A DNA stretch of 64,000 nucleotides from a phage. Every line of letters starts with the position of its first letter. Positions within the stretch are counted from its first letter, which is position 1. The stretch lies in sequence record PZ386970.1; one strand, written 5' to 3'. A program made the translations under genes and the position numbers. Positions 24,984 to 42,465 of this stretch are shown here, one piece after another. The notes under the pieces are model-generated. The model was not told the origin of the DNA, searched no databases, and saw only the letters and a program-made list of their open reading frames with translations.

Positions 24984-25166
24984 TTATAGTGAATTCACAT
25001 AGTCAATGAGTTCTTGTTCTTTCCTGTCAAATGATTCCAACAATGCTTGATATTCTTCATCTGTTAAAGGAGCATATTCATCGTACGCATTGGTGGCTGC
25101 TTGCTCATCCAATAGGTCATGGATAAGTTCGAACAGTTTAGCTTTCTCTTCTTTAGTCAATTTCAT
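24984..25166 (-). CDS. hypothetical acidic protein
   Basis: 60 aa ORF; no motif. Confidence 0.35.
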   Translation of the reverse strand: MKLTKEEKAKLFELIHDLLDEQAATNAYDEYAPLTDEEYQALLESFDRKEQELIDYVNSL

Positions 25167-25657
25167 TTAGGTTCCCAATCAACAATCACAATTTCTAGTT
25201 TAGTGGAATACGTATCTAAAATCTCTTCGATGACATCCCAGTTTCCACCACCAATACCTGCACCAATTCTTGGCATATAAATTACAGGCTTTGTTATCTT
25301 ATTCTTTCCGAATTTATTTAATTCTATTATACAATTCATTAAAGCAGAGTACTCAAAATTAGGTCCCGGCTCAAACTGTGTATAAAGATTAAAGCAATAA
25401 GCTTTATGGGTCTTAAAATATTTTTCATAAACTGAATAAGTCCCGAGTTTAGACTCGTCTCCGAATTCGGTTTGAAGTTTATCGGCTTCTAAAATTTTTG
25501 GATAAGCCTTTGCTAATTGACCTGCTACACCGGCGCCCATTGTATGAAAACAATTACACCCATGAGCAATATTATTACCTTTAGAAAACAGGGCGACAAT
25601 ATCGCCCTTGATATAGTTTTTAATCACTTGCTGCAAGTCCTCTAGTATAAGAGTCAA
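25163..25657 (-). CDS. macro-domain protein (ADP-ribose binding/hydrolase fold)
   Basis: 164 aa; NIAHGCNCFHTMGAGVAGQLAKA and C-terminal IGAGIGGGNWDV glycine-rich loops typical of macro domains. Confidence 0.6.
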   Translation of the reverse strand: MTLILEDLQQVIKNYIKGDIVALFSKGNNIAHGCNCFHTMGAGVAGQLAKAYPKILEADKLQTEFGDESKLGTYSVYEKYFKTHKAYCFNLYTQFEPGPNFEYSALMNCIIELNKFGKNKITKPVIYMPRIGAGIGGGNWDVIEEILDTYSTKLEIVIVDWEPK

Positions 25658-25963: not shown

Positions 25964-26506
25964 TCATTCTTTTATTTCCAGTAGTTTATTTGATTTAAGG
26001 TAATTAGCCTTTTCTAGGACTTCAGAAGCATATTTACTTCCAGCACTTGTCTTCCATCCCGCATTATATGAGGATATGGCTTTTCTTATATCCCCGTTAT
26101 GTATATTTAACCAATAAGAAAATTCGATATAAGCCCATCTTGCTGAATTAGACCGCTTAGATAGCATTTTCTTAATTTGGGCATCAGTCATATTATAACC
26201 AAGCTGGTTAATTCTTGCCCTCATTGTTGGTAGATAGTTTTGGAACATTCCATACGCATGGTGACCTTTCTTATCTTTAAGATTAATACCGGCAGATGAT
26301 TCTTGCCATAATATTGCGGCCATTATGTATCCAAGTCCTTTCTTATGCATATTTTCATGCGTTTTAAATTTTCCGTCCTTAGAAAACTGTTCCCCAAACT
26401 GATAAGCATAATTCAAGTTATCGAGTTGGACATTACTAAAAGTATGCTCGGAGCTATGTGCTGATAATGAAAGAGCAAATAGACCAGCGAGTAGTGCTTT
26501 TCTCAT
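25964..26506 (-). CDS. lytic transglycosylase (SLT domain) with signal peptide
   Basis: Signal peptide MRKALLAGLFALSLSAHS; SLT-like motifs AILWQESS (catalytic Glu), YGMFQ, SYNAGW. Confidence 0.6.
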   Translation of the reverse strand: MRKALLAGLFALSLSAHSSEHTFSNVQLDNLNYAYQFGEQFSKDGKFKTHENMHKKGLGYIMAAILWQESSAGINLKDKKGHHAYGMFQNYLPTMRARINQLGYNMTDAQIKKMLSKRSNSARWAYIEFSYWLNIHNGDIRKAISSYNAGWKTSAGSKYASEVLEKANYLKSNKLLEIKE

Positions 26507-26514
26507 GTTTACCT

Positions 26515-26973
26515 CTAGATTTTAATCACTGCTTTAGAAGCTTTTCCTGGTAGTCGTTTACTGTTAATAATAGCCATTCTGCATTGAAGAGTCTTCATTT
26601 TGAATGCTGGATTTTCGCGACAAACTGTAAGGCCTAACCAAAGATTTCCATCAGTTATTTCTAAACGGCCTGGGCGATATTCGACACCTTCAACAAAATC
26701 TTCATCAACATCCGGACGTGCCGGCATTGATAAAAATTCTGCAACTTCTTTAACATGATTTTTTACTTTATGAAATAATTCAAAAACGTAGTTCTCATCT
26801 ATTTCTCTCTGGATGGCACGATCTAAGAGATGTTGAGAATACTTGATATGAAAGCCTGGTAGTCCAAGAGACTTTGCAGCATCTTTTATACCGGCATTTA
26901 TTTTGCGGAACTCCGTTTCAAAGATTCGACGGAGTTTATTACGGCGGATAAAAACTTCCGAATTGATAGTCAT
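26515..26973 (-). CDS. regB: endoribonuclease RegB
   Basis: 152 aa; size, position after the vs genes and overall similarity to T4 RegB as recalled. Confidence 0.7.
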   Translation of the reverse strand: MTINSEVFIRRNKLRRIFETEFRKINAGIKDAAKSLGLPGFHIKYSQHLLDRAIQREIDENYVFELFHKVKNHVKEVAEFLSMPARPDVDEDFVEGVEYRPGRLEITDGNLWLGLTVCRENPAFKMKTLQCRMAIINSKRLPGKASKAVIKI

Positions 26974-27001
26974 TTTGATTTCTCCTCTAGTTGACAGGTC
27001 T

Positions 27002-27030
27002 ATAGTAACACAACTAGAGGAGAAGTAAAC
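27002..27030 (-). promoter_or_regulatory. T4-type early promoter
   Basis: Minus strand GTTTAC-17 nt-TGT-TACTAT, 30 nt upstream of the regB start with a GAGGAG ribosome-binding site between. Confidence 0.5.
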
Positions 27031-27034
27031 TACT

Positions 27035-27244
27035 TTATTCTTGGAATGGTGTGAGTTTTCCAGCTATCGAACAAATTTCTACCATCGCAGGATAAAACTC
27101 TTTCACTTGTTCAAGGCGCTGGACAGCGTACCGCATTTCGCCTTCTTCAAGACAAGCCGCTTGGTCATCGAGCAAATATTTGTGGTAACCTGTACAGGCT
27201 TCACTAATGATACGTTGGAATTCTTGCAAACTTTCAATTTTCAC
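27035..27244 (-). CDS. hypothetical protein (vs.3 position)
   Basis: 69 aa ORF. Confidence 0.35.
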   Translation of the reverse strand: MKIESLQEFQRIISEACTGYHKYLLDDQAACLEEGEMRYAVQRLEQVKEFYPAMVEICSIAGKLTPFQE

Positions 27245-27510
27245 TAGTATTTTTCCTCAGGTCGAAATACTGCACGACATGCCCACATGCTGGCTTCTTT
27301 TAGATGTTGCTTAGCATACTTAAGAGCCTGCACTGCATCCATATCTTCTTTGGTTTGTTGCTCTGTTTCATTTTCTTTCAAGATATATGCTTCTTCAATC
27401 AGAGCATCAAACAACAATCCAAGACGGACTTCGGCATCTTTAATAGCGTTCACTTTACCGATTTTATCATCGGTATGCGGCTTGTAGCCTTTGATGTCTT
27501 CAATCGACAT
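27244..27510 (-). CDS. hypothetical protein at the T4 vs.4 position (candidate Acb2-like)
   Basis: About 89 aa helical protein starting MSIEDIKGYK...; called only by counting positions between regB and the IP cluster. Confidence 0.35.
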   Translation of the reverse strand: MSIEDIKGYKPHTDDKIGKVNAIKDAEVRLGLLFDALIEEAYILKENETEQQTKEDMDAVQALKYAKQHLKEASMWACRAVFRPEEKY

Positions 27511-27724
27511 AAGGAATTTCCTCATCGGTGGCAAGGTCATATTCGACCAATTGGATAGGCTCGTTAATACCATATCCACGTACAGTGATATCAGTTGTCG
27601 GATAGTTTCCAGTAATATCACCCGTTCTAAATGATTCAATGAATGATTGCTCGCCTGAGCAACTAAACCAGGCGGCAAAACATTTTAAAACATCTTCAGA
27701 CCCTTCTATAATCAATTTAGCCAT
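27500..27724 (-). CDS. hypothetical acidic protein (vs.5 position)
   Basis: 74 aa ORF. Confidence 0.35.
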   Translation of the reverse strand: MAKLIIEGSEDVLKCFAAWFSCSGEQSFIESFRTGDITGNYPTTDITVRGYGINEPIQLVEYDLATDEEIPYVD

Positions 27725-28086
27725 TATAGACTCTCAGTAAAGGTACGAGCGATAACGTCGCGCTGCTGTTCCGGAGTCAGAGAGTTAAAGCGAACTGCAT
27801 AACCGGATACACGGATGGTCAGCTGCGGATATTTTTCTGGATGCTTAACTGCATCTTCCAGAGTTTCACGACGCAGAACGTTAACGTTCAGGTGTTGTCC
27901 ACCTTCAATTTTAACTTTAGGTTGATGTTCAATTTCAATTTCACGGGCATTCAAACCGTAGAAAATTTCTGGGTCTACAATAGCGTCTTCTTTAAAAGTC
28001 TTAGAGACAATAATCCGGGCTTGAGTACCGTCTTCAAAATAAATAGTGCCTTTATGTGCACCTTCAAGAATTTGATATGCTTTCAT
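27724..28086 (-). CDS. autonomous glycyl radical cofactor GrcA/YfiD-like protein
   Basis: 120 aa; C-terminal [25 protein letters not shown] is the glycyl-radical signature of PFL/GrcA. Confidence 0.65.
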
Positions 28087-28092
28087 ATAACC

Positions 28093-28401
28093 TCAATTAG
28101 AAAATAAATTTATCCAAGTTTTTTCTTTAATCAAAAATGGGTCGGAATTAAACGCCATTAAACTTTGAGTGATTAATCCCTTAAATGGTCCATCAATAAA
28201 TTCCATTTTGAAATGCGGAATACTAGTCATCAACCGTGCATTAGGAGCAGTACAAAGAACCTGCTGCCCTGCGAACGGACCTTTAGTCAAACGATATCGT
28301 TTAGGTTTAAAATGGTAAATCTCGTAATTTTCTACAAGAGCCCTTTTATTGCATACTGGGCTGTTATAACAATATTCAAAAACTTCAATAGTGGTCATCA
28401 T
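28093..28401 (-). CDS. hypothetical protein (vs.7 position)
   Basis: 102 aa ORF. Confidence 0.4.
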   Translation of the reverse strand: MMTTIEVFEYCYNSPVCNKRALVENYEIYHFKPKRYRLTKGPFAGQQVLCTAPNARLMTSIPHFKMEFIDGPFKGLITQSLMAFNSDPFLIKEKTWINLFSN

Positions 28402-28937
28402 TGCATTCCAATCACAAAAAATTGAGGACGAGCATTACCGCCGATGCAATATTTGCTTTTGCAACAGTGTTGGACTGTTTTAATATGTACATTGTAAATC
28501 TTATCCATATCAGGAGCTTTAATAGGCTCGTCAATTATATACAGAATACGAGAAAGCGTTAATCCACGGAATTTAGAACCTTCATTGCCAATAAAACTAC
28601 GAACAGAATCAGTAAATAAACGGAATCGAATATCGTCGCTAGAATAACGAGAAAATTCTTTTTTAATGTTGCCAGCAGAAATTTTAGAATAAGCTGAAGT
28701 ATTAGAAAGAACAATAACTGTTCCACCGTCGTACAGCCAATTAACAGCAAAATTAGTTACTGCGGTCGATTTACCTGATTGTCTGCCGCCGTCTAAACGA
28801 AGTGTACAGTACTGCTTGAGTACGTCTTCAAATGGTGGGGCATAACCATTCTTACAAATTTCTTCTACTCTAGCATCAGAATGGTGTGTAAAAGCATTCA
28901 TCAGGGATAGATAAGGACCAGTTAAAAATGTTCTCAT
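28398..28937 (-). CDS. P-loop NTPase
   Basis: 179 aa; Walker A GGRQSGKST and Walker B-like ILYIIDEP. Confidence 0.5.
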   Translation of the reverse strand: MRTFLTGPYLSLMNAFTHHSDARVEEICKNGYAPPFEDVLKQYCTLRLDGGRQSGKSTAVTNFAVNWLYDGGTVIVLSNTSAYSKISAGNIKKEFSRYSSDDIRFRLFTDSVRSFIGNEGSKFRGLTLSRILYIIDEPIKAPDMDKIYNVHIKTVQHCCKSKYCIGGNARPQFFVIGMQ

Positions 28938-29115
28938 TTAGTTTCTCTTAAGGTTGGGGCCATTCCATGGCGCATGAATTGTCCATTTCTGTATTTACCC
29001 ATTACCGCACTTGGGCTCGACCTTATTACAGGTTGGTGGGAATCCCTCATAGAATCATGAGGTCCAGGTTGTTCCCATTTTATTTAAATGTAAATAGGCC
29101 TAAGTATCGGCCTTA

Positions 29116-29694
29116 TTAATTACCACGGGCTGCATTAGCAACGGCGTAAGCGTACTGAACATTAGCGTCTTTAAATGTACCTTTAGAGGTATCTATTTCC
29201 GCCTTAAAGCCGCCTTTAGCCATTACATCGGCAAATTCTTTACGGAAAGCCATTGCGTCAAGACCTTTCCATGATGATTTATGCTTGGCAAATTCAAGAC
29301 CAGCGTAGTTGACAGCCTTAGCTAATTTATTATCAATAACCCATTTACCTGCTTTAGGCACAAACTTCGGACCTTTTTGTTTAGAGAACAGTTTTAAATT
29401 CCAACGACGAAGGTCACTGTCGGCTTTAACAAAAGCTGCATCTAAGTTACTAGCAACAACATCTTCAATATGAGCAAATTTAAGTCCGTCAACTTCAATA
29501 TTTAGATCGTTACGCCAGCGTAGTCCTTCCCAAGCGAAGGCTTTAAAATCAGAAGCTTTTGTGGCTAGATATCGTTCAAGTGGAGCAGTTTTAGGGTCAA
29601 AGCCGTTTCCGCCACGATAATTCCACTCGTCCTTATTAATGCCTTGGACTTTTCCTGCAAAGGCCTCGGCGATAAATTCTTTATACGTTTTCAT
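29116..29694 (-). CDS. internal protein (IPIII-like) with capsid-targeting N-terminus
   Basis: 192 aa starting MKTYKEFIAE, the T4 internal-protein capsid-targeting/protease-cleavage sequence. Confidence 0.6.
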   Translation of the reverse strand: MKTYKEFIAEAFAGKVQGINKDEWNYRGGNGFDPKTAPLERYLATKASDFKAFAWEGLRWRNDLNIEVDGLKFAHIEDVVASNLDAAFVKADSDLRRWNLKLFSKQKGPKFVPKAGKWVIDNKLAKAVNYAGLEFAKHKSSWKGLDAMAFRKEFADVMAKGGFKAEIDTSKGTFKDANVQYAYAVANAARGN

Positions 29695-29720
29695 TTTTGT
29701 TCCTATTGATTTAATTTATG

Positions 29721-30035
29721 TTATTCTTTAGGGAAGTTTTTAGAGTATGCATCATAAAGTTTATTACCAATACGGCGGAAGACTTTAGCTGCAAAACGGT
29801 TTTCAGGGTTTTTAATCATGATTTGCATCATGTAAGTTCCTGCATCCGAAAGAGCTTCTTCATAGTACCCATTAATTTCTTTAAGAGTCCTACGTTTACC
29901 GCCAGGACCGTCAACAGTAATTTTCCATTTACCTGTAGAAGTGCGGCTCGGTGGCTCAACTTGTTCAATCCAAATATAACCACCTTCAACGCGTTGGTTG
30001 GCGGATTCTGCAATAAATTCTTTATACGTTTTCAT
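29721..30035 (-). CDS. internal protein-like (capsid-targeting N-terminus)
   Basis: 104 aa starting MKTYKEFIAE. Confidence 0.55.
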   Translation of the reverse strand: MKTYKEFIAESANQRVEGGYIWIEQVEPPSRTSTGKWKITVDGPGGKRRTLKEINGYYEEALSDAGTYMMQIMIKNPENRFAAKVFRRIGNKLYDAYSKNFPKE

Positions 30036-39737: not shown

Positions 39738-39814
<77 letters not shown>

Positions 39815-39817
39815 GAT

Positions 39818-39892
39818 TGGTGACCCTGGCTGGTTTCGATCCAGCTACCTATCAGTTATGAGCTGACAGCTCTCCCATTGAGCTACAGGGCC
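39818..39892 (-). tRNA. tRNA with CAU anticodon (Met or Ile2-type)
   Basis: Hand-folded cloverleaf on the minus strand: acceptor GGCCCUG/CAGGGUC, D-stem GCUC/GAGC, anticodon loop CUCAUAA, T-arm GCUGG-AUCGAAA-CCAGC, encoded CCA; 3 nt from the tRNA-Arg 5' end. Confidence 0.7.

Positions 39893-41779: not shown

Positions 41780-42465
<686 letters not shown>

Follow-up and report, generated by a model that had tools for sequence, protein, structure and literature searches.

A Mosigvirus ortholog of the T4 vs.4/acb2 gene, predicted to encode a cyclic-dinucleotide sponge

The acb2 gene and its neighbours

The DNA analysed here, a 64-kb stretch of phage sequence (the window), carries on its minus strand a small open reading frame at 27244..27510 that corresponds to T4 vs.4 and that we refer to as acb2. 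Over the 3.2 kb around acb2 the window is 97% identical to Mosigvirus phages, including moha (Mosigvirus mar005p1), ESh15, phiE142 and p000v, and a 25-kb stretch is ~96% identical to ESh15, p000v and JS09; 99% was reached by one record only, in its best-matching stretch. On the basis of these nucleotide identities we assign the window to Mosigvirus (Straboviridae, Tevenvirinae).

The acb2 reading frame, assigned from the ORF itself, the match to PDB entry 7UQ2, Pfam, PHROG and blastp against T4, starts with an ATG at 27510-27508, continues through 88 sense codons and ends with a TAG at 27246-27244, all on the minus strand. The earlier note had given its length as roughly 89 aa, which corresponds to 88 residues plus the stop. 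The encoded product is MSIEDIKGYKPHTDDKIGKVNAIKDAEVRLGLLFDALIEEAYILKENETEQQTKEDMDAVQALKYAKQHLKEASMWACRAVFRPEEKY. A Shine-Dalgarno sequence, GAGGA, can be read directly from the sequence at 27519..27523 (minus strand), 8 nt upstream of the ATG and inside the 3' end of vs.5. The start of acb2 overlaps the end of this upstream gene by 11 nt, and its TAG ends in the G that begins the GTG start codon of the vs.3 counterpart, the next gene downstream; such dense gene packing is usual in T-even phages. We favour the ATG at 27510 as the start because a second in-frame ATG at 27525-27523 (MRKFLM...), which was considered and rejected, has no Shine-Dalgarno sequence and is missing from relatives whose protein, like that of T4, begins with MIEDIKGY. 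The upstream ATG also overlaps the Shine-Dalgarno sequence of the proximal one.

The earlier note had placed the gene at the vs.4 position by counting genes. To compare gene order, we took the annotated T4 genes of the vs.4 region and compared their translations with the window ORFs by blastp. All 11 ORFs from tk.4 to ipIII pair with T4 counterparts in the T4 order: tk.4 (25163-25657, minus strand; 82% identity to T4), vs (67%), vs.1 (83%), regB (78%; Pfam REGB_T4, 232 bits), vs.3 (27035-27244, minus strand; 41%), acb2 itself (65.5% over 87 residues), vs.5 (69%), vs.6 (94%; with a glycyl-radical domain), vs.7 (63%), vs.8 (89%) and ipIII (91%). The acb2 gene is located between vs.3 and vs.5, downstream of regB and on the same strand, and the positional assignment holds, since a gene-count offset relative to T4 was tested for and none was found. 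The order differs at a single point: T4 has denV and ipII between vs.8 and ipIII, and the window has neither gene there (28938-29115). Phage moha, a close relative, carries denV on the other side of ipIII. In several related Mosigvirus records the BLAST matches are split into pieces, with an insertion of 270-450 bp relative to the window at some point within 26500-29700.

Several features of the neighbouring genes were also observed. The vs.8 counterpart (28398-29050, minus strand) is split relative to T4: residues 1-36 of T4 Vs.8 match 29050..28943 in one frame (92% identity) and residues 35-216 match 28946..28401 in another (88% identity). The region consists of a 38-aa ORF (28934-29050) and a 179-aa ORF (28398-28937) that overlap in ATGA, and the annotation of phage moha contains only the 179-aa ORF. 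A genuine pair of genes, a frameshift, or a fusion on the T4 side could account for the split. A terminator-like hairpin, AGGCCGATACTTAGGCCT, is present at 29113-29096 (minus strand) directly after the ipIII stop; it is followed by a T-rich run and sets ipIII apart from the vs.8-to-vs.3 gene string. A promoter/terminator scan of 26400-29800 revealed no convincing (sigma-70-type) promoter upstream of vs.8, and promoter-like sites in this interval were fewer than in shuffled sequences (6 versus 9.6). The vs.3 counterpart has 69 aa compared to 92 aa in T4 and a GTG start; it matches no Pfam family and falls in PHROG 2037 (function unknown). The tk.4 counterpart is annotated in phage moha as a macro-domain protein. 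An Rfam scan of the whole window detected two tRNAs, and nothing in the vicinity of acb2. These are the only two tRNA genes detected in the 64 kb (39741-39892, minus strand); T4 has a cluster of eight tRNA genes and two small stable RNAs.

Family membership, predicted fold and binding-site residues

The earlier note had proposed an Acb2-like identity from gene position. In addition to the alignment with T4 Vs.4, a phmmer search of all PDB chains with the acb2 product returned a single significant match, 7UQ2 ('Vs.4'), with E=1e-30 over residues 3-88. The protein matches the full 58-position profile of Pfam PF24729 (Acb2/Tad1 hairpin, Acb2_Tad1_hairpin) with a score of 65.7 bits (cut-off 27; E=4.4e-18), and it matches PHROG 717 (phrog_717) with E=3.6e-28, the family that Jenson et al. 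used to define 198 Vs.4 homologues (PMC10097602). A search of a large protein database gave 142 homologs, mostly from T4-like Enterobacteriaceae phages, and PF24729 was found in 120 of the 120 that were listed. A profile built from 46 homologs recovered 7UQ2 at E=5e-41 and also the published Acb2 of phage PaMx33, 'p26' (8H2J, 8H2X, 8H39, 8IXZ and others), at E=3e-5. Direct BLASTP to PaMx33 Acb2 gave 20% identity with E=0.28, which is insufficient alone; because this pairwise comparison is not significant, the link to PaMx33 Acb2 needs the homolog profile or Pfam. An NCBIfam scan of the acb2 product and of the Acb1 protein discussed below found no family and consequently no curated NCBI name. 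More distant Acb2 relatives, 31-41% identical across residues 5-85, are encoded on viral contigs of ~5-55 kb, much smaller than the ~170-kb T4-like genomes (loci L047-L083); these presumably represent a siphophage or prophage branch of the family. Judged by homology and gene order, the window gene is the Mosigvirus ortholog of T4 vs.4/acb2 and an ordinary member of a known family. That T4 Vs.4 is a cyclic-nucleotide sponge of the Acb2 family, as the earlier note stated, agrees with the literature (PMC10097602, PMC10312549).

An AlphaFold2 monomer model was built from 51 sequences, in an alignment that did not include a T4 row. The model has a mean pLDDT of 87 and consists of two long helices, residues 13-42 and 50-81, in keeping with the earlier description of the product as helical. 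The terminal arms, which build the pocket, are modelled with the lowest confidence (pLDDT 63 and 70). Foldseek searches of the PDB returned chains D, A and B of 7UQ2 as the top three matches (probability 1.00, TM ~0.7, rmsd 4.6-4.9 Å), and the top 11 include PaMx33 Acb2 (8H2J/8H2X; TM ~0.6-0.66). The predicted protomer has the features of an Acb2 subunit, ~90 aa in length with two long antiparallel helices and short N- and C-terminal arms.

The roles of individual residues in T4 Vs.4 are known from its crystal structure, ITC, ultracentrifugation and escaper genetics (PMC10097602). The protein binds 3',3'-cGAMP with a Kd of ~30 nM and assembles into a hexamer with three cGAMP molecules, each bound between two protomers (PMC10097602). 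The bases are stacked by Y8 and F82, and hydrogen bonds and salt bridges are provided by Y8, H11, K23 and R79 (PMC10097602). Mutation of L29, A66, A73 or A77 leaves no hexamer and no binding, whereas F33A has the milder effect of weakening the oligomer. T12I, S74N and A77I, recovered from escapers, inactivate the protein, and L60 is a further site found in the escaper screen (PMC10097602).

Compared to T4 Vs.4 the window protein has one additional N-terminal residue (MS-IED versus M-IED) and one residue less in the hairpin loop. Its numbering runs one ahead of that of T4 up to residue 46 (n+1 for T4 residue n) and coincides with it from residue 48. With this mapping, all six cGAMP-pocket residues are identical: T4 Y8, H11, K23, S74, R79 and F82 correspond to Y9, H12, K24, S74, R79 and F82 in the window protein. 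The T4 T12 helix cap is retained as T13, and the five hexamer-interface residues L29, F33, A66, A73 and A77 are retained as L30, F34, A66, A73 and A77. Among the residues implicated by the T4 experiments only L60 differs, being V60 in the window. Residues 1-33 (27412..27510, minus strand) form the N-terminal arm and the start of helix 1 and contain Y9, H12, T13, K24 and L30, and residues 66-88 (27247..27315, minus strand) form the end of helix 2 and the C-terminal tail and contain A66, A73, S74, A77, R79 and F82. Across 51 homologs there is no variation in the columns of Y9, H12, K24, S74, R79 and F82. Conservation is 90% or more at T13, L30 and A73, F34 is variable in a few homologs and the LKEASMWACR block is nearly all invariant (alignments of 46 and 51 sequences). 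Finally, the profile alignment places window Y9, the tyrosine of IKGY, and the pocket lysine K24 opposite Y11 and K26 of PaMx33 Acb2, the residues through which that protein binds dinucleotides (PMC10312549).

Hairpin divergence, ligand spectrum and proposed function

The conservation of the two ends is matched by strong divergence between them. Residues 34-65 (27316..27411, minus strand), of which F34 is the first, form a hypervariable hairpin tip, as seen in the homolog alignment and in the comparison with T4, and the centre of the hairpin differs in both length and sequence among homologs. When the codons are aligned with those of T4, residues 1-37 have 33 of 37 amino acids in common with T4 and 16 codons that differ synonymously. 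The segment 70-88 covers 19 codon positions, made up of 18 residues and the stop, of which 18 are identical, with 6 synonymous differences. The terminal segments together contain 22 synonymously differing codons and only 5 amino-acid changes, and the ends are 89-95% identical. By contrast, residues 38-69 retain 8 of 32 amino acids (~25%) and a nucleotide identity of 39.6%.

Nei-Gojobori counts were obtained for six gap-free alleles from a viral contig collection, with the segments compared pairwise. With the 98%-identical pair of the window allele and L004 left out, pN is 0.00-0.13 in the ends versus 0.35-0.62 in the centre; the omitted pair has hardly any amino-acid change in any segment. At residues 1-33 pS is 0.3-0.9 with pN of 0.01-0.13. 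Synonymous sites are nearly saturated (pS 0.55-0.88) and similarly so in the ends and the centre, and centre dN/dS is 0.3-1.1 at this saturated dS. On these counts purifying selection is strong in the N- and C-terminal thirds. The centre ratio is compatible with relaxed constraint and is no demonstration of positive selection, the two being inseparable here because of the near-saturation of synonymous sites.

The divergent centre would contribute to a cavity on the three-fold axis of the predicted hexamer. In PaMx33 Acb2 this is a second, independent pocket, in which R67 and T74 bind cA3 and cAAG (PMC10312549). T4 Acb2, with D61 and T68 at these positions, binds the same dinucleotides as PaMx33 Acb2 but no trinucleotides, and its cavity is crowded by Y37, A57, L60, D61 and T64 (PMC10312549). 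T4 Acb2, in which only the R67 equivalent is missing, does not bind cA3, and the D61R protein still fails to do so, as the helix geometry differs; CHI14 Acb2 likewise does not bind cA3 (PMC10312549). Mapped onto T4, the cavity face of the window protein consists of I38 from helix 1 and M57, V60, Q61, K64 and Q68 from helix 2, in place of T4 Y37, A57, L60, D61, T64 and T68; Q68 lies just outside residues 34-65. The equivalents of PaMx33 R67 and T74 are Q61 and Q68, so we do not place the window protein in the dual-pocket (PaMx33/JBD67-type), trinucleotide-binding subgroup, and the allele is probably devoid of cyclic trinucleotide binding.

Taken together, the data make it very likely, by analogy with T4 Vs.4, that the gene encodes an Acb2 of the T4 type, a sponge that holds cyclic dinucleotides in the three pockets of a homohexamer and leaves trinucleotides unbound. 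The oligomer state, the binding of ligands and their range, and the inhibition of CBASS are carried over by homology from experiments on the T4 and PaMx33 proteins; our literature search found no published test of a Mosigvirus or RB69 Acb2 (binding, oligomerisation or infection). In the mechanism we propose, acb2 would be translated from its own GAGGA site within the packed minus-strand vs.8-to-vs.3 gene string, and the 88-residue product would fold as a two-helix hairpin. Six copies would interlock into a hexamer with three two-protomer interfaces, each clamping one cyclic dinucleotide such as 3',3'-cGAMP between the N-terminal arm (Y9, H12 and K24) and the C-terminal tail (S74, R79 and F82). 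The nucleotide would be sequestered without being degraded, the free signal would be held below the level that activates CBASS effectors and the phage would escape abortive infection, with Acb2 acting alongside the Acb1 nuclease encoded in the window.

We considered three other explanations of the locus. ORF length is no evidence of coding here, because plus-strand ORFs of similar length, 84 aa (27304-27558) and 66 aa (27287-27487), overlap acb2, and the minus-strand frame could in principle be a chance ORF, or the true gene could lie on the plus strand. The coding call is based instead on homology and on the substitution pattern relative to T4. Every homology and family match falls in the minus-strand frame, the neighbouring genes are all on the minus strand, the synonymous substitutions are consistent with that frame, and tblastn matches to the protein are found in 1232 phage records. 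The match to 7UQ2, the Pfam family and the substitution pattern already refute the chance or plus-strand explanation, to which we attach a negligible probability, and the minus-strand ORF is, by these sequence comparisons, a real gene. It is also very unlikely that the window carries an inactivated or decaying relic allele. Natural loss-of-function alleles of acb2 do exist, since a binding-site mutation has been described for phage T2 and a premature stop for PaMx41 (PMC12657218), and the tblastn match in T2 begins only at residue 10. The window ORF, however, is full length with an intact N-terminus and a good Shine-Dalgarno sequence, all of the tested pocket and interface residues are identical to those of T4, both ends evolve under strong purifying selection, and identical or near-identical copies occur in ~135 phage records. 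The relic explanation is disfavoured by these sequence features.

The third explanation retains the family and the fold and proposes that the hairpin centre remodels the three-fold pocket, either to accept a second ligand class, be it a cyclic trinucleotide or some other signal, or to tune affinity away from Panoptes decoys, such that the hypervariable centre of T-even Acb2 would be an adaptive specificity module and not just a tolerant spacer. The substitution pattern is what suggests it, with residues 34-65 ~25% identical to T4 compared to 89-95% at the ends. The cavity face changes from acidic D61 to Q61, from T64 to K64, from Y37 to the smaller I38 and from L60 to V60, and the window cavity has one acidic residue less and one basic residue more than that of T4. 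Acb2 homologs vary in ligand spectrum (PMC10312549), certain homologs bind 3'cADPR and not cGAMP (PMC12393519), and the Panoptes study put forward the idea that the specificity of Acb2 may be retuned by phages (PMC12657218). Against this, both residues needed for cA3 binding by PaMx33 Acb2 are missing (Q61 and Q68), A57 is replaced by the bulkier M57 and the T4 D61R substitution gained no cA3 binding owing to helix geometry (PMC10312549). Moreover, the 3'cADPR-binding homolog uses extra terminal β-strands that the window protein does not have (PMC12393519), and the centre dN/dS of 0.3-1.1 at saturated dS is in line with relaxed constraint and does not prove adaptive evolution. We therefore regard an adaptive role of the centre, whether as a remodelled pocket or as a specificity module in general, as improbable, though less so than a relic allele. 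If it were true, the window Acb2 might bind a second ligand, unlike T4 Acb2, or capture fewer Panoptes decoys.

Under the preferred assignment, a T4-type dinucleotide sponge, the gene is a known one that was correctly identified from its position. The Acb2 family is already established, as are its mode of action and its occurrence across T-even phages. Copies 100% identical to the window protein are present in phages vB_EcoM_G2285 and mar005P1, and the ~135 GenBank records, of Mosigvirus type, have a copy of at least 95% identity; among the matches listed, all records at this level label it 'hypothetical protein'. The practical value is in annotation, in that these copies can be named acb2/vs.4. 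The presence of both Acb2 and Acb1 in the window predicts phage resistance to cyclic-dinucleotide CBASS and, by the logic of Panoptes, the phage may be exposed to defences that respond to the activity of a sponge. These predictions bear on the choice of T-even-like phages for therapy.

Comparison with known anti-defence proteins

The closest known system is T4 Vs.4/Acb2 (7UQ2), which is orthologous, has the same genomic position and likewise has 88 aa, with 65.5% identity and the same predicted two-helix hairpin. Both phages also encode Acb1, and the window phage, like T4, has both known anti-CBASS proteins. The Acb1 gene of the window, an ortholog of T4 gp57B, is located at 41783-42238 (minus strand), with 85% identity over the full 152 residues and a match to Pfam PF23474 of 197 bits. 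Acb1 and Acb2 target the same pathway, the CBASS signals, but Acb1 is unrelated in sequence and fold and cleaves cyclic nucleotides, whereas Acb2 binds them without cleavage. A further ligand of T4 Acb2 is the Panoptes decoy signal 2',3'-c-di-AMP, which it likewise sequesters, and because of this sequestration intact T4 Acb2 triggers Panoptes; Y8A and F82C abolish the effect (PMC12657218). In contrast to the T2 allele, with its reported binding-site mutation (PMC12657218) and a match that starts at residue 10, the window allele has an intact N-terminus.

PaMx33 Acb2 (p26; Huiting et al. 2023, Cao et al., PMC10312549) belongs to the same Pfam family and has a similar length and hairpin fold. 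It differs in that it binds two cyclic trinucleotides via R67 and T74, where the window protein has Q61 and Q68, and it comes from a temperate-type Pseudomonas siphophage, whereas the window phage is of the T-even type. Thoeris anti-defence 1 (Tad1) has the Pfam 'Acb2/Tad1 hairpin' domain in common with the window protein and follows the same sponge principle, in which an immune signal is sequestered and not degraded (PMC10680739). No Tad1 chains were found in the PDB sequence searches (phmmer and profile) or in the Foldseek fold search. Tad1 is a separate protein family with gcADPR as its primary ligand, and the window protein resembles Vs.4 far more than it does any Tad1.
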